The notes below the pieces were generated by a model. That model was not told where the DNA came from and did no database searches. It saw only the letters and a program-made list of their open reading frames with translations. The position numbers and the translations under genes are program-made. 64,000 nucleotides of DNA. It comes from an uncultured Acidobacteriota bacterium (GTDB lineage: Bacteria; Acidobacteriota; Thermoanaerobaculia; Multivoradales; SZUA-115). Below are positions 2 to 9,848 of the stretch, piece after piece. Each line of letters begins with the position of its first letter. Position 1 is the stretch's first letter. The stretch is taken from contig CAWDVR010000004.1 of NCBI GenBank assembly GCA_963805975.1, forward strand, positions 512,001 through 576,000, in the 5' to 3' direction.

Positions 2-2236
2 GCGGGCCAGAACCGCATCGACGTCGACTTCGGCTACAAGCCGGCGACGCCGGTCTGCACCGCCGGCTACATGAAGGACACGTTCACGACGGCGAGCTTC
101 TCGAACAACGAAGGCACCCTGGCGTGGAGCGCCGCGTGGATCGAGAACGACGTCGCCGGCGCCGGTCCGGGCAGCGGCAATGTGACGGTGGGAACTCCGG
201 TATCCGGGTACCTGATCCTGCGCGACAGCCCGGACACCGGCACGCAGCCGAGCGCGGCGCGCGAGGCCAATCTCTCCGGCTTCGCCTCGGCGATGCTGTC
301 CTTCGATTTCCACATCCGTGGGGTCGAGACCGACGACGCGGCGGTGGTGGAGGTTTCGAACAATGGAGGCGCTTCCTACACCGTTCTCGAGACCTTCACC
401 GGCCTGACCGGGACGACCATCAGCTCGCGCAGCTACGACATCACGGCATACAAGGCGAGCAATACGCGGATCCGGTTCCGGATCAGCAACCTGTACGGCG
501 GCGATGACGATTTCTTCAAGCTCGACCTGGTCCGTATCGACGCCACCTGCGTGCCGCCGCAGACCGGTTCGGTCGGTGACCGGGTTTGGAAGGACAGTGA
601 CGGCGATGGCATCCAGGACGGCGGCGAGCCGGGGATCAACGGCGTCACCGTCCAGTTGCTGAATTCGGGAGGCACGGTCGTCGCGACGCAGGTGACCAGC
701 GGCAACGGAAACTATCTGTTCAGCGGCCTCAACGCCGGGACCTATTCGGTGCGTGTCGTTTCGAGCACCGTGCCGGCTGGCTACTCGCAGACCTACGACC
801 TCGACGGCACGGGCAGCGCCCACATCGCCAGCTTCTCGCTGGGCGCGGGACAGAATCGCACCGACGTCGACTTCGGCTATCGCCCGGCGCCAGTCTGCAC
901 CGCCGGCTACCTGAAGGACACGTTCACGACGGCGGGCTTCTCGAACAACGAGGGCACGCTGAATTTCAACGGCTCGTGGATCGAATACGACGTGGCGGGA
1001 GCGGGTGCGAGTAGCGGCAACGTGACGGTGGGAACTCCGGTCGCCGGGTACATGATCCTGCGCGACAGCCCGGACACCGGGACGCAGCCGAGTGTGGCGC
1101 GCGAGGCCAATCTCTCCGGCTTCGCCTCGGCGACGTTGTCCTTCGACTTCCACATCCGTGGAGTCGAGGCCGACGACGCGGCGGTGGTGGAAGTTTCGAA
1201 CAACGGGGGAGCTTCCTACACCGTGCTCGAGACCTTCACCGGCTACACCGGCACCACGATCAGCTCGCGGAGCTACGACATCACGGCGTACAAGGCGACC
1301 AATACGCGAATCCGGTTCCGGATCAGCAACCTGTACGGCGGCGATGACGACTTCTTCAAGCTCGATGTGGTGCGCATCGACGCCGCTTGCGTGCCTCAGA
1401 CTGGATCGGTCGGCGACCGGGTGTGGAAGGACAGCGACGGCGACGGCGTCCAGGACAGCGGCGAGACGGGCCTCAACGGGGTTACCGTCGAGCTGCTGAA
1501 CTCGGGCGGCACGGTGATCGCCACCCAAGTGACGAGCGGCAACGGCAACTACCTGTTCAGCGGCCTCGCCGCCGGCACCTACAAGGTACGGGTCAAGTCG
1601 ACCACGGTGCCGTCGGGCTACACCCAGACCTACGACCTGGACGGCACCGGCACGGCGCACCTCGCGACGTTCACGCTGGCGGCGGGACAGAACCGCACCG
1701 ACGTGGACTTCGGCTACAAGCCAGCGCCGGCGTGCACGGCGGGTTACTTCAAGGACAACTTCGGCACCGCCAGCTTCTCGAACAACGACGGCACGCTGAG
1801 CTGGTCGGCGGCGTGGGTCGAGTCCGACAGCGCCGGCGCGGGAGTGAGCAGCGGCAACGTCACGGTGGGGACGCCGTACAGCGGCTATCTGATCCTGGAC
1901 GACAATCCGGACACTGGCACGCAGCCGAGCGCGGCGCGCCAAGCGAACCTCTCCGGCTTCGTCACCGCGACGCTCAAGTTCGACTTCCACACCACCGGCG
2001 GTACCGACGCGGACGACGCCGCGGTCATCGAGGTGTCGAACAATGGCGGCGCGTCCTACACCGTGCTGCAGACCATTACCGGACTGACGGGCACGAACGT
2101 CGGCTCGAAGACCTTCAACATCTCGGCCTACATCTCGAGCAACACGCGGATCCGGTTCCGGATCAGCGCCAACTATGGGGCCGCGGACGAGATGTTCAAG
2201 GTGGACACGGTGCGGATCGACACCACTTGTCCGTGA
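2..2236 (+). CDS. Large extracellular repeat protein (5'-truncated): SdrD B-like domains alternating with Cys-flanked beta-sandwich modules
   Basis: Frame open from position 2 (AGQNRIDVDFGY...). Two GSVGDRVWKDSDGDG(I/V)QDxGExG(I/L)NGVTVxLL...NGNYLFSGLxAGTY...DVDFGY SdrD_B-type units and three ~160-aa beta-rich modules. Confidence 0.85.
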   Translation, partial: AGQNRIDVDFGYKPATPVCTAGYMKDTFTTASFSNNEGTLAWSAAWIENDVAGAGPGSGNVTVGTPVSGYLILRDSPDTGTQPSAAREANLSGFASAMLSFDFHIRGVETDDAAVVEVSNNGGASYTVLETFTGLTGTTISSRSYDITAYKASNTRIRFRISNLYGGDDDFFKLDLVRIDATCVPPQTGSVGDRVWKDSDGDGIQDGGEPGINGVTVQLLNSGGTVVATQVTSGNGNYLFSGLNAGTYSVRVVSSTVPAGYSQTYDLDGTGSAHIASFSLGAGQNRTDVDFGYRPAPVCTAGYLKDTFTTAGFSNNEGTLNFNGSWIEYDVAGAGASSGNVTVGTPVAGYMILRDSPDTGTQPSVAREANLSGFASATLSFDFHIRGVEADDAAVVEVSNNGGASYTVLETFTGYTGTTISSRSYDITAYKATNTRIRFRISNLYGGDDDFFKLDVVRIDAACVPQTGSVGDRVWKDSDGDGVQDSGETGLNGVTVELLNSGGTVIATQVTSGNGNYLFSGLAAGTYKVRVKSTTVPSGYTQTYDLDGTGTAHLATFTLAAGQNRTDVDFGYKPAPACTAGYFKDNFGTASFSNNDGTLSWSAAWVESDSAGAGVSSGNVTVGTPYSGYLILDDNPDTGTQPSAARQANLSGFVTATLKFDFHTTGGTDADDAAVIEVSNNGGASYTVLQTITGLTGTNVGSKTFNISAYISSNTRIRFRISANYGAADEMFKVDTVRIDTTCP
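53..2233 (+). repeat. Intragenic tandem repeat, ~840-bp (280-aa) unit, about 2.6 copies in the window
   Basis: Units begin near 53, 893 and 1730 (tgcac(c/g)gc(c/g)ggNtac, CTAGY). Units 1 and 2 are near-identical at nucleotide level; unit 3 is more diverged. Confidence 0.9.
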
Positions 2237-2248
2237 TTGGGTGTCTGT

Positions 2249-2545
2249 ATGTCCAGCGTGAAGGAGCCGACGATCTTGGGACAGTTGACCATCCCGCCCT
2301 CTGTTCTCTTCCGAGACCTGGGCGGGGAGGCCGTGCTGCTGGAGCTCGAGACCGGCTGCTACTTCGGGCTCGACGAGATCGGGACCCGCATCTGGCGGCT
2401 GATCGAGAAGCACGGTGAGCTGCCGCGCGTGGAGCGCGAGCTGCTGGAGGCCTACGAGGTGTCGCCGGACCATCTGGCCGGCGACCTCTCCGCCTTCGTC
2501 CGCTCGCTGGTCTCGCGCGGCCTGCTGAGGGCCCATGAAGCGTAG
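2249..2545 (+). CDS. PqqD-family RiPP recognition element (lasso B1/E protein)
   Basis: FRDLGGEAVLLELETGCYFGLDEIGTRIWRLI...YEV...DL..FV..L...GLL is the typical PqqD/RRE pattern; it overlaps the B2 gene. Confidence 0.92.
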   Translation: MSSVKEPTILGQLTIPPSVLFRDLGGEAVLLELETGCYFGLDEIGTRIWRLIEKHGELPRVERELLEAYEVSPDHLAGDLSAFVRSLVSRGLLRAHEA

Positions 2546-2963
2546 AGCCCGCGCCTTCTTCTCGCTGGCGAGCGAAGAGCGAGACGTCCTCCTCGAAGCC
2601 TGGTGCCTCCTGCTGCTGGCGGATCTCGCCCTGCGCTGGCTGCCCTGGAGGCGGGTCGAGGGGCTGCTTGCACCCGCGCAGGGCTCCAGTCGTCTGACGC
2701 TGCTCTCGCCGGCACGGCTCGCCACGCTGGTCGAGATCGCGGCCCGGCACCATCTGGTTCCCATGACCTGCCTGCGGCGCGCGCTGGTGCTGCGCCGGCT
2801 GCTCTCGCGGACGGGCTCGAGCGGGGCCCTGAGACTCGGCGTCCGCCGCGAAGCGAACGAGCTCCTGGCCCATGCCTGGGTGGAAGTGGGCGAGCGGCCG
2901 CTGGGGGATGATCCTCAGGTAGCCCTCCGCTTTGCCCCCCTCCTGCCCGCTCACAGCGCGTGA
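2535..2963 (+). CDS. Lasso peptide leader peptidase B2 (transglutaminase-like)
   Basis: TCLRRALVL...LRLGVR...AHAWVE gives the Cys-His-acid catalytic motifs of lasso B2 proteins. Confidence 0.93.
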   Translation: MKRRARAFFSLASEERDVLLEAWCLLLLADLALRWLPWRRVEGLLAPAQGSSRLTLLSPARLATLVEIAARHHLVPMTCLRRALVLRRLLSRTGSSGALRLGVRREANELLAHAWVEVGERPLGDDPQVALRFAPLLPAHSA

Positions 2964-3042
2964 GACGAGTGCTAACAGTCGCCGGAGCGCTGGATCGAGC
3001 CTGCGACGCGCTCAGCTCGTTTTAGGAAGCAGTATTTTGTAA

Positions 3043-3051
3043 TGGTATGAT
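3043..3051 (+). promoter_or_regulatory. Putative extended -10 promoter (TGgTATGAT) for the precursor gene
   Basis: AT-rich patch in the only intergenic gap of the cluster, containing TGnTATGAT; no clear -35. Confidence 0.4.
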
Positions 3052-3152
3052 ACCGGCGGTCTGCGAGCCGGCGGTATCCGTTCAGGCTGGCTACGAGTCG
3101 CTCTGTAGAGACTAGAGAGATGAAGCTCCAGCGGCCCGACCTGAGAGACACC

Positions 3153-3341
3153 ATGAGAGAACACGAGAAAGCGAATCAGGAAGGCGGTGGCACGCGGTCT
3201 TCCGTGCCCGCGGGCGAGCGGCCGCCGCGGCGCGCCTACAGCCCGCCCCAGCTCGTGGTCTATGGCACTCTTTCCGACCTGACCCAGGCCTTGGGCGTCC
3301 TTGGCCGCGACGGGTTGGCCGGCTCTCGTCCCCGTACCTGA
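3153..3341 (+). CDS. Lasso peptide precursor (leader ...AYSPPQLVVYGTLSDLTQ; core ALGVLGRDGLAGSRPRT); alternative start at 3120
   Basis: YxxPxL leader motif, downstream Gly, Thr at -2, small residue at +1 and Asp at core position 8; lies between B2 and cyclase. Confidence 0.92.
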   Translation: MREHEKANQEGGGTRSSVPAGERPPRRAYSPPQLVVYGTLSDLTQALGVLGRDGLAGSRPRT

Positions 3342-3367
3342 ACCCCGTCCTGTCGCCACGAGCCCCG

Positions 3368-5149
3368 TTGCCAGGGTCCCTGCCACGGCAGCCTCCGCTG
3401 GCGGAGGGCGCCACGGCGGGCGGCTCCCACCCGCTGTCGCACGCGTGGCTGATCACCTGGGATCCGCACCATAATCGAGTCCGGGTAGGCTCCTCCGAGC
3501 CGTCGAGCCCCACTGCCGCGGATGCCACCTGCCTGTGGTGCGCAGGCTGGGTGGCGAATCGACCGGCGTTGAGCGCGAGGACCGGCCTCCCCCTCACGGC
3601 GACCGCTCGCGAGCTGGTGCCGGCGCTCTACGCCCGCGAGGGGCCCGAGGCGGCGCGGCAGATCGCCGGTGACCTGGCCTGGGTGCTGTGGGACCCTCGG
3701 CAGCGGCTTCTCTTCGCCTGCCGCGACCGGCTCGGAAGCCATCGCCTCCTCTACCGGGTGGTGGCCGACCAGATCCTGCTCTCTGGAAGCGTCGGGCCAC
3801 TCCTCTCCGACCCTCTCGTCCCTGGTCCGGGCTCGACGATCAATCTCTCGGCGCTCGTGGCGCACGTGCAGGGTGACGCGCTGCCGCCCGGGGAGACTTT
3901 CTTCAGCTCGATCCAGGCCGTCGAGCCGGCGACCTGCGTGACCTTCGGCGGCACGGCCGAGATCCGCCGGCGCTACTTCTGCCTGGCTGCCCAACCGCTG
4001 CTCGAGCTGCACAGCGACGCCGAGTATGCGGAGGCCTTCCGCGACCGGCTGCGGGAAGTGGTCGCGGACCATGCCGAGCCGGGACCCCTGGGCCTCACGC
4101 TGTCGAGCGGGCTCGACTCGACCTCGATCGCCGTCGCGCTCTCCGAGCTCGGCCGGGCCTCCGACGTGACCGCCATCACCTGGGTGACCCCGGGGCTGCC
4201 GGCGGCGGACGAGAGCGCGGGCGCCCGGGCGGTGGTGAGCCGTACCGGCCTCGGGCACCTGGAGATCCCGGCCGATCGACACTGGCCGCTGGCGACCGGC
4301 ATGGAGCTGGAGCCCCCCGCGGAGGGGCCGCCGCTGACGCTGTTCGGCGGGCTCTGGGACGTCACCTACGCGCTGGCTCGCGAGCGGCGGATCTCTTCCC
4401 TGTGGACTGGCCTGGGGGGGGACCATCTCTTCGGCGGGAACGTCTTCTCTTACCCGGATCTCCTGCTCACCGGCCGTTGGCTCGCGCTCGCGAGGCAGCT
4501 CCGGGACCATCTGCCGCGCTCGGAGTTCCGGCCCGCGGAGGTGCTGCGGTCGATGATCGTTTCCCCGATCCTCCGCTCCTACATGCCTCTGCCGCGCTTC
4601 CGCCGGGTCCCGACCGTGCCCTGGCTCACGGCCAAGGGGCTGGCCCTCTACCGCCCGCAGCGGCCCACCGCTCCGCGGCGGCTCCTGCCCGGCCGGCGCC
4701 AGCGGTTCGAGGCCCTCACCGAAGCGGCCCTGCCGCGGCTGGTGGAGGACCAGGCGGCCGCGGCGGCGCGCCATGGCGTGACTCTGCGGCATCCCCTGCT
4801 CGATCCGCGCCTGCTCGAGCTCGCGGCGAGCCTGCCCACCGACCAGAGCTTCCGCGCGGCTCGCCGCAAGGGGATCATGGTGCGCGCCATGCGCGGCCGG
4901 CTGCCCGACGAAATCCTCGACCGGCACGATAAGATTTATCCCACCGCGCTCGCCGAGCGCGGCCTCAAGGAGCGGGAGACGAAGAAGGTCTGGAGCCTGA
5001 TGGACAATCCGCGGCTCGGCGATCTGGGCCTGATCGAACCCGCCTCCTGGCGGCAGGCCTATCGGCTCTACCTCGATGGCCGCGAGGACTCCGACATGTT
5101 CTGGCACACCCTCACCGCGGAAGCCTGGCTGCGGCTGCACGGCGGCTGA
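3368..5149 (+). CDS. Lasso cyclase (asparagine synthetase-like protein C)
   Basis: RDRLG, LSSGLDST PP-loop, GLGGDHLFGG and RHPLLDPRLLE motifs; no N-terminal catalytic Cys of a true AsnB. Start codon uncertain. Confidence 0.9.
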   Translation: MPGSLPRQPPLAEGATAGGSHPLSHAWLITWDPHHNRVRVGSSEPSSPTAADATCLWCAGWVANRPALSARTGLPLTATARELVPALYAREGPEAARQIAGDLAWVLWDPRQRLLFACRDRLGSHRLLYRVVADQILLSGSVGPLLSDPLVPGPGSTINLSALVAHVQGDALPPGETFFSSIQAVEPATCVTFGGTAEIRRRYFCLAAQPLLELHSDAEYAEAFRDRLREVVADHAEPGPLGLTLSSGLDSTSIAVALSELGRASDVTAITWVTPGLPAADESAGARAVVSRTGLGHLEIPADRHWPLATGMELEPPAEGPPLTLFGGLWDVTYALARERRISSLWTGLGGDHLFGGNVFSYPDLLLTGRWLALARQLRDHLPRSEFRPAEVLRSMIVSPILRSYMPLPRFRRVPTVPWLTAKGLALYRPQRPTAPRRLLPGRRQRFEALTEAALPRLVEDQAAAAARHGVTLRHPLLDPRLLELAASLPTDQSFRAARRKGIMVRAMRGRLPDEILDRHDKIYPTALAERGLKERETKKVWSLMDNPRLGDLGLIEPASWRQAYRLYLDGREDSDMFWHTLTAEAWLRLHGG

Positions 5150-5151
5150 GG

Positions 5152-6360
5152 ATGAGCACACTGACGCGCGCCACTCTCCTCGCCAGGAAGCCTGACCTGG
5201 AGCTCCGCCTCGATGCCAGGAACCAGGTCGCGGTGATGGTCGGCGGCGAGGCCGTGCCCTGCGGCCCCTACGGACTGGCCGTTCTGGAGGCGTTCTCGCG
5301 GCCTGCCACTCTCGACGAGGCATTGCGCCGGGTGCAGGCCCGTGGCGCCCAGGACTGGATGGACCTCACCAGCGTCGTCGTGCGTCTCTACGAGGCCGGG
5401 GTGCTCCTCGACGGCGAGCGCGGCAAGCCGGCGCCAGAGAGGCGCTCCGGCTTTGCGAGCTGGTCGGTCCACGTCAAGATGCTCAACGACCGGGTGCGCA
5501 CGGCCAGCTACCTGAGGGCGATCGCGGAAACGGTGCGACCGGGCGACGTGGTGGTCGACATCGGCACGGGCACCGGGGTGCTGGCGGTGGCCGCGGCCCG
5601 TGCCGGGGCGCGGCAGGTGTTTGCCGTCGAGGCTTCCGGCATTGCCACGGTGGCCCGCGAGGTCTTCGCGAGGAGCGGCGTGGGCGATCGGATCACGCTG
5701 GTCGAAAGCTGGTCCACGCAAGCCGAGCTTCCGGAGCCGGCGGACGTGATCGTGAGCGAGATCATTGGCAACGATCCTTTCGGGGAACGGGTCCTGGAGG
5801 TGCTCGCTGATGCCCGGAGGCGGTTGGCCCGGCCCGGCGCGCGCTCGGTTCCCCGCCGCTTGCGGGTCTACGTCCTGCCGGTGACGGTCCCGGAAGAAGA
5901 GCTGGTGCGCCGCATGGGGAGCGAGGCGACCCTCGCCCGCTGGCGCTCCTGGTACGACCTCGACCTCTCCCCGCTCGCTCTGCTGGCAGAGCAGTCGGAA
6001 GAGCCGCTTTTCTTTATCCGCCCGCAGAAGGCGAGCCTCTGGCCGGCGCTCGCCGAGCCGGCGCTGGTGGCGAACGTGGACCTCGAAGCCGAGCCGCCCG
6101 GCGTGCTGGACACGACCGCGGAGGTCACGGTCACGGCTCCCGGCCTCCTGAGCGGCCTGCTGATGTACTTCGAGCTCGATCTCAGCCCCACGGTCACGTT
6201 CTCCACTCATCCCGCCCGGGTCGAGGAGGCCGGCTGCTGGCGGAGCCCCGTGTGGGTCCCTGCCCGGCGGCGGCGCTACGAGCCCGGCGAGCGTCTCTCC
6301 CTCCGCTTCGAGTATGGGCATGCCTCCCGCTGGACGCGGTTGACCCTTCTTCCCGCGTAG
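5152..6360 (+). CDS. SAM-dependent methyltransferase of the protein arginine methyltransferase (PRMT) type with an N-terminal wHTH/RRE-like domain
   Basis: HVKMLNDRVRTASY, VVDIGTGTG, VFAVEAS, double-E loop SEIIGNDPFGE and C-terminal barrel motifs YFELDL...FSTHP...CWRSPV. Confidence 0.82.
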   Translation: MSTLTRATLLARKPDLELRLDARNQVAVMVGGEAVPCGPYGLAVLEAFSRPATLDEALRRVQARGAQDWMDLTSVVVRLYEAGVLLDGERGKPAPERRSGFASWSVHVKMLNDRVRTASYLRAIAETVRPGDVVVDIGTGTGVLAVAAARAGARQVFAVEASGIATVAREVFARSGVGDRITLVESWSTQAELPEPADVIVSEIIGNDPFGERVLEVLADARRRLARPGARSVPRRLRVYVLPVTVPEEELVRRMGSEATLARWRSWYDLDLSPLALLAEQSEEPLFFIRPQKASLWPALAEPALVANVDLEAEPPGVLDTTAEVTVTAPGLLSGLLMYFELDLSPTVTFSTHPARVEEAGCWRSPVWVPARRRRYEPGERLSLRFEYGHASRWTRLTLLPA

Positions 6361-6369
6361 GGCCCCAGC

Positions 6370-7401
6370 TTGCAGCCTCCGAGCGCAACCGCCGGCCTCG
6401 GGCACGAGACCTACCGGGTCTTCGGGCAGACCCTCGCCACGAGCTTTCCGCTCGCGAACGTGCTCGCCTCCGGCCACGGCCCGGTCGATTTGGTCTTCTC
6501 CTGCACGGACCAACCCCCGAGCGAGGTGGACGACGCGGCGTTCGAGCCCTTCTATCAAAGCCCCGAGCGTACGGGCTCGGGAGAAGCGGTCTGCAGTCTG
6601 GCTCGCTTTCCCGGGGCTCGCCTCGTCGAGTGGGAGAGGCTGGGCTTCCCGCAGGTGGCCGACTTCTACTATCTCGGCCCGGCCCGGATTCACGCCCGAA
6701 GGCTCGCCGGCGGGAACGATGCCGAGATCGAGCAGTGCCTGCTCGGGCCGGTCCTCTCCTACTGGCTCGAGCAGAGGGGAATCCTCGCGTTACACGCCTC
6801 AGCGGTGGAGGTGGGGGGCGAGGCGATTGCCTTCCTCGCCGCCGGCGGCACCGGGAAGACGTCGCTGGCCGCGGCCTTCCTCGCAGAGGGGGACGCCCTG
6901 GTCACGGACGACGTGCTGGCCCTCCAGCCCGCTGCACGAGGATTTCTGGCGCTTCCCGGCTACCCGCAGCTCAAGCTCTGGCCGGATCTCGCCCGGCAGC
7001 TCTTCGGTGAGCGTTCGGCCCTGCCGCGCGTGCTTCCGGGGGTCGAGAAGCTGCGCGCCCCGGTGGGGGCCGGCTTCGGGCGGTTCTGTCACCAAACGCT
7101 GCCGCTGACCGCGCTCTACCTGCTCGAACGGCGACCCGAGGACGCGGGCCGCGACGGCCGCGTGGTTCCGGTCGCCTCACGAGACGCCCTGATCGAGCTC
7201 GTCCGGCACTCGTTCTCGCCCCGCCTGGCGGAGGCGACCCAACTCCAGGAGCGCCGCCTCACGCAGTTCGCCCGCCTGCTGCGGGAGGTTCCAGTCCGGC
7301 GTCTGCTGGTGCCCTCGGCTCTCGAGCTCCTGCCGCGGGTGGCCGAGGCGGTGCGGCGGGACCTCAGCCTGCCGCGAGGGAACCCTTCTCCTCGAGAATG
7401 A
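6370..7401 (+). CDS. HPr kinase-like lasso peptide kinase
   Basis: LHASAV, Walker A AAGGTGKTS, LVTDD and PGYPQLKLW motifs; last gene of the lasso cluster. Confidence 0.85.
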   Translation: MQPPSATAGLGHETYRVFGQTLATSFPLANVLASGHGPVDLVFSCTDQPPSEVDDAAFEPFYQSPERTGSGEAVCSLARFPGARLVEWERLGFPQVADFYYLGPARIHARRLAGGNDAEIEQCLLGPVLSYWLEQRGILALHASAVEVGGEAIAFLAAGGTGKTSLAAAFLAEGDALVTDDVLALQPAARGFLALPGYPQLKLWPDLARQLFGERSALPRVLPGVEKLRAPVGAGFGRFCHQTLPLTALYLLERRPEDAGRDGRVVPVASRDALIELVRHSFSPRLAEATQLQERRLTQFARLLREVPVRRLLVPSALELLPRVAEAVRRDLSLPRGNPSPRE

Positions 7402-9703
7402 GACGGCGCCTCTCCCCCCGCTCCTCCGCGCCTGCCGCCTCTCCCTGGCGGTCGAGCTCGTCGAGCGCCGCCAGGGCCTGGTTGTAGTAGTGCCGGGCGG
7501 TGGCGGCGGCGAGCGGCCGCGCCTTCGCCGCCGCCATCCGCGAATACTCGAAAGCGCGGCCCCACATCCGGGCCTGCCCGAAGTGATAGGCCAAGAGCTC
7601 GCAGGCCTCGGCCCGATCCGCCGGCAGCCGGGCCTCGATCGCCTCGGCGATCCGCCGGTGGAGGATCTGGGCCCGTTCGGGGGAGAGGCTGGCGGCGATC
7701 GCCCTGCGGATGGAGGGGTGGGCGAACTCGAAAGTGCCGTGCCGTGCTCCCTGGACCCAGAGCGCCACGTCGCGCTGGCGGCGGCTGTCCGCCCAGTAGC
7801 GCAGGAAATGCCGCACCAGCCAGCGCTGCAGCATCATCTCGACACAGGTCTCGACCACGCCGCCGTCCTCCTGCTCGGCAGCTTCCAGGAGCTCGGCTTC
7901 GAACCGCTGGCCGATCAGGGAGGCCAGGGTGAGCAGGCGCCGGGTGGAGGAGGGCAGCCGGCGGATACGCCGCAGGACCAGATCCTCGTGGCGCGCGGGC
8001 AGGTGCGACCCGAGCTGCCCCCCGAATTGCTTGGGCACGGCCGTCAGGCGCCAGCTCTTGCCCTCCGGCACCAGGGCTCCCTCGTCCCACAGCAGGTTGA
8101 TCCATTCGGTAAGGAGCAGCGGGGCGCCTTCGGTGGCAGCGAACAGGAACCGCGCCAGGGTGGCGCTGCCCTGCTTGCCGACCAGCGAGACGGCGATGCG
8201 GGCCACGCTCTCGGCCGAGAGGCGGTCGAGCGACAGGCGCCTGACGCGGCCTCGCGGCGCGCCGGCCGCGGCGAGGAGCTTCGCCAGGCCGCTCGACGCG
8301 GTCTCTTGCGGCCGGTAGGTCGCCACCACCCAGACCGGCAGGTCGGCGATCTCGGGGAGCAGCGCATGGAGCAGGTTGAAAGTGTCGTCGTCCATCCACT
8401 GCAGGTTGTCGAGAAAGAGGATCAGCGGGCGGGGTTTGCTCGCCGCGCCGGCGCCCGCTGTGACGTGATGGAAGAAGGCGCCGAGGGCGATGGCCAGGCG
8501 GCCGACCGGCAGCGGTGGCGGGTCGCCCGGCCTGGGGGCCAGCTCGGGCCGGAGCTCGCCGAGCTCCGGCACCAGCCGCGCAACGTCCGCCAGCGCGTCG
8601 CCCAACGGCAGACGGGTGATGCGCTCGGCGATCTCGACCTCGCTGGCGAGCGAGTTGCGGAGCGCCTCGATCAGCGGCTGGAAGGCGACCGGCGGCGCGA
8701 GATCGTAGCTGCGGCCGAGAAACACCGTCGCCCGCTCCCGGCTGGTGATCTCGTCGAGGACGGCGCGCACGAGGCGCGACTTGCCGATCCCCGCCTCGCC
8801 CTCCACCAGCGTCAGGCACCCCTGGCCGTCGCTCGCCGCGCGCCAGGTGTGGTGGAGGTGCTGGGACGCTTCCTCTCTTCCCACCAGCGGGATGAGGGGC
8901 CCGCGGGGAGCCGCCTTGTGCTCGCCACCGGCGAGCGCCGGCAGGCTCTCGTCGAGGATCTGCCGGTGGAGCTGGCGGGTCTCCTCCATCGGCTCGACGC
9001 CCAGCTCCCTGCCGAGCAGGCGCTCGAAGCTCTCGTAGTCCTCGAGCGCCCGGCTGCGGCGGCCGGTGTAGGCATAGAGCAGCATGAGCTGGCGGTGCAC
9101 CTCCTCCGACAGCGGGTCGATGCGCAGCAACTGCCGCGCGTACTGGATGCCGAACACGTGGCCGCCGGAACGCAGATGGTGCGCCACCAGGGCACGCAGG
9201 GCGGCGACGGCGGACTCGCGCAGGCGTTCCTGCTCGGCGAGCATCCATTCCTCGAACGGTGGGCTGTCGGAGAGAAAGAAGCCGGCCAGGAAGTCGCCGC
9301 GGTAGAGCTGCGCCGCCCGCGCCAGCTCCCGCGGGTCGGCGACGTCGCCGTCGCCCCAGCCGCGGTCGATCGCCTCCGAGAAGGCATGGAGATCGACCCA
9401 GCAGTGCTCGCCCGGTGCGAAGCGGATGCTGCCCTGCTCGGCGGAGATCAGTGGCGGGGCGCCCTCCGGCACCTGCAGCACCGCGCGCAGGTTGTAGAGG
9501 GCCTGGCGCAGGTTCTGGCGGGCCGCCGTTTCGCCGTGGTGAGGCCAGAACAGGCCCGCCAACTGGTCGCGGCTGAAGGCCCGCCCGGGGTGGGCGGCGA
9601 GGTAGGCGATGAGCGCGCGGGCGCGCTGCGACTCGAAGCGGACCACCCGGCGCGAACCGGAGATCTCGAGTTCCCCCAGCAGGCGGATGTCGAGGCGGGT
9701 CAT
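7364..9703 (-). CDS. SARP-family (OmpR-type HTH + BTAD) transcriptional regulator with AAA ATPase domain
   Basis: IRLLGELEI...SRDQLAGLFWP...ARQNLRQALYNLR; LYRGDFLAG; DPLSEEVHRQLM; Walker A GEAGIGKS; Walker B FLDNLQW. ATG at 9703 preferred. Confidence 0.9.
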   Translation of the reverse strand: MTRLDIRLLGELEISGSRRVVRFESQRARALIAYLAAHPGRAFSRDQLAGLFWPHHGETAARQNLRQALYNLRAVLQVPEGAPPLISAEQGSIRFAPGEHCWVDLHAFSEAIDRGWGDGDVADPRELARAAQLYRGDFLAGFFLSDSPPFEEWMLAEQERLRESAVAALRALVAHHLRSGGHVFGIQYARQLLRIDPLSEEVHRQLMLLYAYTGRRSRALEDYESFERLLGRELGVEPMEETRQLHRQILDESLPALAGGEHKAAPRGPLIPLVGREEASQHLHHTWRAASDGQGCLTLVEGEAGIGKSRLVRAVLDEITSRERATVFLGRSYDLAPPVAFQPLIEALRNSLASEVEIAERITRLPLGDALADVARLVPELGELRPELAPRPGDPPPLPVGRLAIALGAFFHHVTAGAGAASKPRPLILFLDNLQWMDDDTFNLLHALLPEIADLPVWVVATYRPQETASSGLAKLLAAAGAPRGRVRRLSLDRLSAESVARIAVSLVGKQGSATLARFLFAATEGAPLLLTEWINLLWDEGALVPEGKSWRLTAVPKQFGGQLGSHLPARHEDLVLRRIRRLPSSTRRLLTLASLIGQRFEAELLEAAEQEDGGVVETCVEMMLQRWLVRHFLRYWADSRRQRDVALWVQGARHGTFEFAHPSIRRAIAASLSPERAQILHRRIAEAIEARLPADRAEACELLAYHFGQARMWGRAFEYSRMAAAKARPLAAATARHYYNQALAALDELDRQGEAAGAEERGERRRLILEEKGSLAAG

Positions 9704-9791
9704 CGAAAAGTCGTCGGGTCGCGAGAGATTCACAGTGTAGCGCGGAACGCTGTAGCAGCGTCGCTCCGGTCCTTCGGCACTGGCAGGGCCC

Positions 9792-9820
9792 TTGACAGGC
9801 CGCCGCCGTAGTCCTATCCT
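9792..9820 (+). promoter_or_regulatory. Sigma70-type promoter of groESL
   Basis: TTGACA (9792-9797), 17-bp spacer, TATCCT (9815-9820), directly followed by CIRCE. Confidence 0.85.
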
Positions 9821-9821
9821 G

Positions 9822-9848
9822 TTAGCACTCACCGACGCCGAGTGCTAA
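9822..9848 (+). promoter_or_regulatory. CIRCE element (HrcA operator)
   Basis: Perfect TTAGCACTC-N9-GAGTGCTAA upstream of groES. Confidence 0.97.

Follow-up and report, generated by a model that had tools for sequence, protein, structure and literature searches.

A predicted class II lasso peptide encoded beside a PRMT-fold methyltransferase and a peptide kinase, with core arginine as the probable methylation substrate and Arg14 as the likely stopper

The 62-aa open reading frame at window:3153-3341(+) (the window is the whole 64,000-nucleotide stretch of DNA analysed here) encodes a predicted lasso precursor A with a 45-aa leader and a 17-aa core, and sequence evidence confirms it as more than a chance reading frame. 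The peptide is a new class II lasso peptide and its tailoring set is a new variant. With some reserve, we favour a reading in which the precursor would be closed into an Ala1-Asp8 ring, Arg14 would act as the stopper and the neighbouring PRMT-fold enzyme would methylate core arginine as a decoration, not as a lock. The genes lie on the plus strand in the order B1-B2-A-C-methyltransferase-kinase, with the precursor gene between lasso B2 and the Asn-synthase-fold cyclase. The features are as follows.

2..2236, plus strand: SdrD_B-repeat surface protein, 3' part (1734 aa whole), flanking this cluster type in relatives
2255..2545, plus strand: lasso B1 (RRE, PqqD family); PF05402 58.6 bits; NF033536 E 9e-14, below cut-off
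2535..2963, plus strand: lasso B2 leader peptidase; NF033537 64 bits, cut-off 33; Cys and His motifs present
3153..3287, plus strand: leader peptide of precursor A, residues 1-45; NF033521; start backed by relative P0123
3288-3338 (with stop 3288..3341), plus strand: core ALGVLGRDGLAGSRPRT, 17 aa, predicted Ala1-Asp8 ring
3306-3308, 3309-3311, 3324-3326 and 3327-3329, plus strand: core residues Arg7, Asp8, Ser13 and Arg14
3333-3335 and 3336-3338, plus strand: core residues Arg16 and Thr17
3368..5149, plus strand: lasso cyclase C (Asn-synthase fold); PF00733 116 bits; exact start codon uncertain
5152..6360, plus strand: methyltransferase, RRE-like domain (about aa 1-92) and PRMT fold, Glu203/Glu212
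6370..7401, plus strand: HPr-kinase-like peptide kinase, His142-Lys163-Asp180-Asp181; TIGR04352 E 7e-6, below cut-off
7364..9832, minus strand: SARP/BTAD-AAA regulator, convergent, a recurrent neighbour of the cluster type

Reading of the leader gave the motif Y-x-x-P-x-L...G-x5-T with Thr44 at position -2, and a profile search with the lasso leader model NF033521 gave 24 bits against a cut-off of 19, the precursor being the sole match in the six frames of the 5.36-Mb genome. These results uphold the core start at Ala1, which the preliminary description had set from Thr at -2. Re-reading of the translation also bore out its account of the core composition: Asp8 is the only acidic residue, with nine residues C-terminal of it, the tail has no aromatic residue, and there are three arginines (7, 14 and 16) and two hydroxyl residues (Ser13 and Thr17). 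The core sequence contains no Cys, so that no disulfide can form, and neither His nor Lys. A longer in-frame ATG at 3120 was rejected as the start: the relative P0123 begins at the Met of 3153, and single-base deletions lie upstream of it in that DNA, at 3112, 3114 and 3128, which makes 3153 the likely start. A cut set by Thr39 instead, no other leader Thr being near the junction, was also rejected; it would place acids at core positions 2 and 13, and therefore no ring would be possible.

P0123 comes from a relative about 93-95% identical and has an identical core. Between it and the precursor, 13 of 46 leader columns and none of the 17 core residues differ (Fisher p 0.013), and the four base changes in its core, which include the Arg7, Asp8 and Arg16 codons, are all synonymous. 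To judge from these substitutions, the core is under purifying selection. In run X1, two contigs of equal depth correspond to window 2258-4494 (155 differences) and 4736-7450 (141 differences); read across the two, with no contig spanning the whole cluster, the gene order of the relative is the same. A homologue search with the precursor returned the window's own protein and one relative, and nothing more. Neither a further precursor nor another lasso cluster was found in the genome, tblastn with B1, B2 and the precursor matched nothing else there, and neither a sigma-70 promoter nor a terminator was detected in 2200-3600.

All catalytic motifs checked in the cluster enzymes were present. Cyclase C, in which PP-loop-like and G-x-G-G-D motifs were found, scored over the cut-off of PF00733 and reached 146 bits with NF033535, below the 525 cut-off of this narrow model; the PDB sequence search returned one hydroxyamidotransferase for it. 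There is no ATG for the cyclase near the precursor stop (window:3368-3550), the first start being TTG, and its first ~50 residues are matched by few relatives. The gap between C and the methyltransferase gene is 2 nt, that between the methyltransferase and kinase genes is 9 nt, and the kinase gene has a 38-nt 3' overlap with the convergent regulator gene (window:7364-7401). The groES-groEL genes adjoin the lasso cluster both here (window:9939-11957) and in a PRMT-less relative (L203:9957-11963).

Of 300 genomes from the window's order, 160 have lasso B2 genes, and many of the clusters repeatedly have an SdrD_B-repeat surface protein and a SARP-AAA regulator as neighbours. Since these neighbours recur and no exporter is found among the cluster genes, a signalling role appears as plausible as an antibiotic one. 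From 150 B2 matches listed, 80 loci were chosen, 36 of which gave a leader match. The full-length methyltransferase was absent near all 80, and three of them had a shorter PRMT-fold type that lacks the N-terminal domain. Among the ten best matches for each of C, the kinase, B1, B2 and the flanking genes, no locus had the full-length enzyme. A quick tree groups the kinase with 16 PRMT-less clusters in a clade of 19 rows (SH-aLRT 97). Such a distribution suggests that a cluster type common in the order likely acquired the methyltransferase gene by insertion between the genes for C and the kinase. Among the loci surveyed, L176:7561 shows, next to B1/B2/C, a candidate core rich in Cys whose leader scores weakly (9.4 bits).

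The Ala1-Asp8 ring given in the preliminary description is well supported, as Asp8 falls within the acceptor window 7-9 and leaves room for loop and tail. The limits used by LassoPred, a loop of at least 3 and a tail of at least 2 residues (excerpt of PMC12214591), allow an upper plug at 11-15 in this core. Excerpts of the same source give, in the 52 rows of Table S5, five 17-residue peptides with 8-residue rings, and the upper plugs in 5JPL, 5XM4, 6XTI, 7BW5 and 7ZWJ are at 11, 12, 12, 12 and 13, two of these peptides being of disulfide class IV. By analogy, the ring would most likely sit over Ala11/Gly12, Gly12/Ser13 or Ser13/Arg14, and at any of these three positions Arg14 comes first among the bulky residues beneath it, followed by Arg16. 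From the ring positions of the solved 17-mers, Arg14 is fairly probably the steric stopper with Arg16 as a back-up, in agreement with the earlier naming of either residue as the plug; Arg7 lies within the ring and therefore cannot be the plug. Arginine reportedly serves as the plug of capistruin, and paeninodin is said to have an Ala1 core in a kinase-containing cluster. For pseudomycoidin, also from a kinase cluster, an A1-D9 contact is described (excerpt of PMC6993621). The 8-residue Asp ring of benenodin-1 (25-atom) is held at Glu14/Gln15, with Lys17 as the stopper on heating, so unmodified Arg should suffice as a lock; caulosegnin I unthreads despite its 8-residue ring (excerpts of PMC13352647).

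The protein METHYLTRANSFERASE (5152..6360) was placed with the PRMTs by both sequence and predicted structure. Its best PDB sequence matches were PRMT6/CARM1 (E 2e-23). The structural model (pLDDT 93.6) matched PRMT3, TbPRMT7 and PRMT2 at Z 29-30 versus 14 for the best non-PRMT; the match to PRMT3 (2fyt; Z 30.3, rmsd 2.1, 290 aligned) comprises the Rossmann domain and the PRMT beta-barrel, and Foldseek gave E 4e-23 against TbPRMT7. In the double-E loop, Glu203 is kept in 116 of 119 homologues and Glu212 in all 119, and both align with the PRMT6 glutamates. Trp363 of the THW loop is kept in 114 of 119, and Cys occupies the His position here, which across the family is Ser in 54, His in 49 and Cys in 6 of the 119. 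The Y-F-x-x-Y helix motif, which we take to be characteristic of type I, is absent. Assignment of a methylation type was set aside, as Foldseek ranks PRMT7 first and VIA ties PRMT3, PRMT7 and PRMT2.

In hhalign the N-terminal domain matched the B1 RREs of these clusters (91%, E 9e-7), and its VIA matches were MccB (Z 10.8, rmsd 1.9, 80 aligned), MibB (9.4) and TigE (9.3). Foldseek gave no match at E<=0.001 for this domain, returning only weak rows, many of them RRE-bearing, and Pfam PqqD matched one of 62 family members, weakly. Some protein methyltransferases and oxygenases share the winged-helix fold (5doo, Z 8.2; 8hkr, Z 7.8). A complex prediction for the enzyme with precursor residues 21-62 and SAH gave no answer (score 0.01, mark 0.32) and counts neither way.

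Canonical peptidyl-Arg methyltransferases are usually regarded as eukaryotic; the enzyme family found here counts at least 592 bacterial proteins. At least two lasso genes lie nearby in 11 of 25 long-flank family loci, by a filter that takes in distant 30-35% homologues, and since the other 14 loci lie among metabolic genes, the family is not dedicated to lasso peptides. Stand-alone members occur among genes for amidohydrolase, M20 peptidase, carbamoyltransferase and amino-acid kinase (L088:5260-13182) and for amidohydrolase, M20 peptidase and PLP enzyme (L101:5248-14189), neighbours that suggest small-molecule substrates for some family members. Two tandem PRMT-fold genes lie beside three 2OG/PhyH oxygenase genes in L005:580-7816, where no lasso genes were detected.

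The association between the enzyme and core arginine was analysed in 22 loci with the full-length enzyme and 37 without it, loci with several precursors being scored on any precursor. Core boundaries in the PRMT set were placed by hand from Thr/Val at -2, L132 and L144 being retained with their acceptor at position 10. The Arg counts exclude L044, which has a single tail Arg, L012, where no lasso genes were seen, L062, which has no acceptor, and L208, L238 and L249, which lack an Asp/Glu at 7-9, together with all loci in which no precursor was found. In the precursors of L001, L008, L040, L081 and L159, which lie beside the enzyme, Val replaces Thr at -2. The first Asp of L132, L144 and L249 falls at core position 10 if the usual cut is assumed, meaning either a 10-residue ring or a shifted cut.

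In this comparison, in which the PRMT-less cores come from the window's own phylum and mostly its order, so that lineage differs from that of the PRMT set, and in which kin are non-independent, 20 of the 22 loci with the enzyme had at least one core Arg, versus 16 of 37 without it. Two or more core arginines were present in 14/22 versus 6/37, and tail Arg in 18/22 versus 16/37. Ring Arg, with 12/22 versus 1/37, was the strongest associated signal. The R-x-R motif occurred in 8/22 versus 1/37, where 2.8 were expected from within-core shuffles (p 0.002), and Arg made up 10.2% of the core residues with the enzyme and 3.1% without. Lys and His were not enriched in cores beside the enzyme (22 vs 37 loci), and the Arg enrichment persisted when each similarity cluster was represented by a single locus (22 vs 29). 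The Arg content of the leaders did not differ (8.7% vs 9.8%, p 0.51), which argues against a GC or lineage artefact. Of the six loci with the shorter PRMT type, two had core Arg. Sister comparisons on the kinase tree were modest, with Arg counts of 2 in L132 vs 1 in L144, 2 in L041 vs 1 in L162/L163, and 1 in L003 vs 1 in L223. The position of Arg varies across cores, and a fixed Arg position as the methylation site was accordingly rejected. At L081:6091-8523 an Arg-free core was found; in the enzyme beside it Gln replaces the second Glu, and a radical SAM gene comes next.

The Arg-rich cores and the conservation of both catalytic glutamates make it probable that the PRMT-fold enzyme would methylate core Arg of the linear precursor, and the earlier proposal of Arg as the methyltransferase substrate is thus likely to hold. 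PRMT7 is described as preferring R-x-R in vitro, and proteomics as favouring Gly-rich contexts for it (excerpts of PMC10202292 and PMC8399567). The R-x-R preference fits Arg14/Arg16 and the Gly context fits Gly6-Arg7; both are candidate sites.

It is doubtful, though a serious alternative, that the enzyme instead methylates another group or protein, with Arg-rich cores reflecting lineage or the targets of the peptides. For this speaks TsaG, a PF06325 enzyme with predicted PRMT homology that methylates His (excerpt of bioRxiv 2020.12.17.423248), and L004:3756-9977, where three cores without Arg, Lys or His lie beside an intact double-E enzyme on the opposite strand; the 14 of 25 long-flank homologue loci without lasso genes and the occurrence of RRE-like folds in protein methyltransferases point the same way. 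However, both Arg-binding glutamates are kept, the enrichment is specific to cores and absent from leaders, and the window core offers neither His nor Lys. Moreover, the gene is packed between C and the kinase gene, an order that the relative keeps. If core Arg is the substrate, methylation of Arg14 or Arg16 could enlarge the plug and be needed for the peptide to stay threaded, which we regard as improbable. In favour of it, Arg14 is likely to be the stopper, both R-x-R and tail Arg are more frequent beside the enzyme, lasso stability rises with plug size (excerpt of PMC7549694), and nitration of the Tyr plugs of caulonodin IV raised thermostability (excerpt of PMC8498205). Yet 7 of the 37 lasso clusters that lack a nearby PRMT-fold gene also have the Gly-Ser-Arg tail; two of these seven, L232 and L242, are among those with the closest cyclases and have D-G-x-x-G-S-R in common with the window core. 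In a check of six Gly-Ser-Arg genomes, G959 and G007 (99% and 96% complete) had no PRMT-fold match at E<=1e-15, and in G050, G899, G901 and G936 the PRMT-fold genes are distant and unlinked, so that they could act in trans. G374 has an Arg14-Pro-Arg16 tail, and its best PRMT-fold match is a Rossmann-motif fragment (E 3e-12). In addition, ring Arg, not tail Arg, is the strongest signal, Arg lies in the ring alone in L001 and L038, and the ring of benenodin-1 is held at Glu14/Gln15. Ring Arg and R-x-R are each found in 0/16 PRMT-less clade relatives, so Arg7 and Arg16 are the arginines added by this peptide. Methylation is probably not the plug-maker or lock, and the earlier suggestion that it enlarges the plug and stabilises the fold is disfavoured because of the seven PRMT-less clusters and the ring signal.

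The kinase keeps the His-Lys-Asp-Asp motif (defined in an excerpt of PMC9266682), and the PDB sequence search with it gave nothing useful. Characterised lasso kinases modify a C-terminal Ser of the linear precursor (excerpts of PMC8498205 and PMC9266682). The core ends in Thr17 and lacks the C-terminal Ser acceptor of the paeninodin type; among the 16 clade relatives a C-terminal Ser occurs in three. Gly-Ser/Thr at +5 to +7 from the acceptor is present in 14 of these 16, a fifteenth having Gly-Tyr, and in 16 of 30 kinase clusters versus 5.3 in shuffles. The residue after the conserved Ser is Arg in 6 of the 14 clade relatives, and in L209, L222 and L226 no bulky residue follows it. From this conservation it appears rather probable that the kinase phosphorylates Ser13, and likely that it belongs to a lasso kinase clade acting on an internal Ser. 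Thr17 was rejected as the main site, Ser13 being the conserved hydroxyl. The preliminary description had matched both hydroxyls to kinase chemistry; this probably holds for Ser13, the better candidate, and is less likely for Thr17, which is not a C-terminal Ser.

Phospho-Ser13 could itself be the designed lower lock, with Arg14 as an optional second stopper, an arrangement that is compatible with Arg methylation and that we think unlikely. The commonest ring position in the solved 17-mers is 12/13 (3/5), which puts residue 13 below the ring; as phospho-Ser may thus be placed immediately beneath the ring, and as no bulky residue follows the Ser in three relatives, it could serve as a lock. The 14/16 conservation of Gly-Ser/Thr, with Arg following in 6/14, is in line with this, and the pseudomycoidin authors speculate that phospho-sugar modifications are a lock (excerpt of PMC6993621). 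However, lasso kinases are reported on C-terminal Ser alone (excerpts of PMC8498205 and PMC9266682), Gly-Ser may be kept merely since small residues fit inside the ring, and here Arg14 would hold without phosphate. That the product is not a stable lasso at all, being branched-cyclic or not made, is very improbable. Pseudomycoidin without its kinase and nucleotidyltransferase is branched-cyclic (excerpt of PMC6993621), the cluster genes include no exporter or isopeptidase, and the cyclase start is atypical; against this, the checked catalytic motifs are all present, the core appears to be under purifying selection, and the ring is small with two arginines in the tail.

In the favoured reading, with Arg14 as the stopper and methylation as a decoration, maturation would begin with the leader attached: the RRE-like domain would dock on the leader and the guanidino group of core Arg would probably be N-methylated, the most probable sites being the Arg14-Pro-Arg16 motif and, in the part that will become the ring, Arg7. 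Lasso tailoring enzymes mostly work on the linear precursor (excerpts of PMC8498205 and PMC13352647), and the kinase would, with somewhat less confidence, phosphorylate Ser13 of the Gly-Ser motif at this stage. B1/B2 would then cut after Gln45, and C would join the Ala1 amine to the Asp8 side chain round the tail; this step follows established lasso biosynthesis and is very probable. The ring would come to rest between 11/12, 12/13 or 13/14, where Arg14 is reasonably expected to be the nearest bulky residue beneath it, backed up by Arg16. Unmethylated Arg would already block the 25-atom ring, so that the more likely effect of methylation is to adjust uptake, protease resistance or the binding of a target. 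The calculated neutral monoisotopic mass is 1676.943 for the lasso, 1690.959 with one methyl group, 1756.910 with phosphate, and 1770.925 and 1784.941 with phosphate plus one and two methyl groups.

The ring and plug are ordinary lasso anatomy, and the value of the cluster is in its tailoring. The comparison ties an uncharacterised family of bacterial proteins to Arg-rich cores, provides in the core a small, directly testable substrate for a PRMT-fold enzyme, and points out a kinase clade likely to act on an internal Ser. Guanidino N-methylation is absent from the lasso modifications in the excerpted part of a 2026 review (PMC13352647), and Arg guanidino methylation is absent from the side-chain N-methylations in the excerpted part of a RiPP methyltransferase review (PMC11285071). 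A literature search, of a kind that misses most subscription papers, found no RiPP PRMT acting on Arg; SznE is a bacterial arginine methyltransferase of small-molecule biosynthesis (excerpt of PMC12637814). A bolder proposal, tentative and rather unlikely, is that the enzyme is a true, leader-guided bacterial PRMT that forms omega-N-methylarginine at Arg7 and/or Arg14-Pro-Arg16, beside an internal phospho-Ser13 that a new kind of lasso kinase sets as a lock immediately below the ring. If true, the peptide would be a rotaxane that bears phosphate and methyl marks together, much as histones do, and the enzyme would offer a portable means of methylating Arg in peptides.

Among solved peptides, 7ZWJ, 5XM4 and 7BW5 resemble this core in having 17 residues, an acceptor at 8 and the ring at 11-14; their sequences are unrelated, and the excerpts available report no kinase or PRMT tailoring for them. 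The clusters of paeninodin (PadeK/ThcoK), SyanK and pseudomycoidin share with the window split B1/B2, a cyclase, an HPr-kinase-like His-Lys-Asp-Asp enzyme and class II, and pseudomycoidin also has an Ala1 start (excerpt of PMC6993621). The window differs from them in the Thr end, the internal Ser13, the 8-residue ring with a 9-residue tail, the lack of a nucleotidyltransferase or exporter among the cluster genes and the extra PRMT-fold gene.

The eukaryotic PRMTs (PRMT7, PRMT3, PRMT6 and CARM1) are like the enzyme in the whole catalytic fold, both glutamates and the THW Trp, and R-x-R in the core resembles PRMT7 substrates (excerpt of PMC10202292). Unlike them, the enzyme is bacterial, with 22-27% identity, an RRE-like N-terminus and Cys at the THW His. 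Like TsaG/TvaG, the histidine bis-N-methyltransferase of a thioamitide, it is PRMT-like and would act on a RiPP; according to the excerpts available, however, TsaG/TvaG act late, on His of the macrocycle, the likeness is by description, and the window core has no His. SAM-dependent tailoring of lasso peptides is also found in lassomycin/StspM (C-terminal ester) and cellulonodin-2/lihuanodin (PIMT aspartimide), and StspM acts on the linear precursor (excerpts of PMC8498205 and PMC9266682). StspM and PIMT are O-methyltransferases, whereas the enzyme described here combines a PRMT barrel, a double-E loop and an RRE-like domain, pointing to Arg N-methylation.
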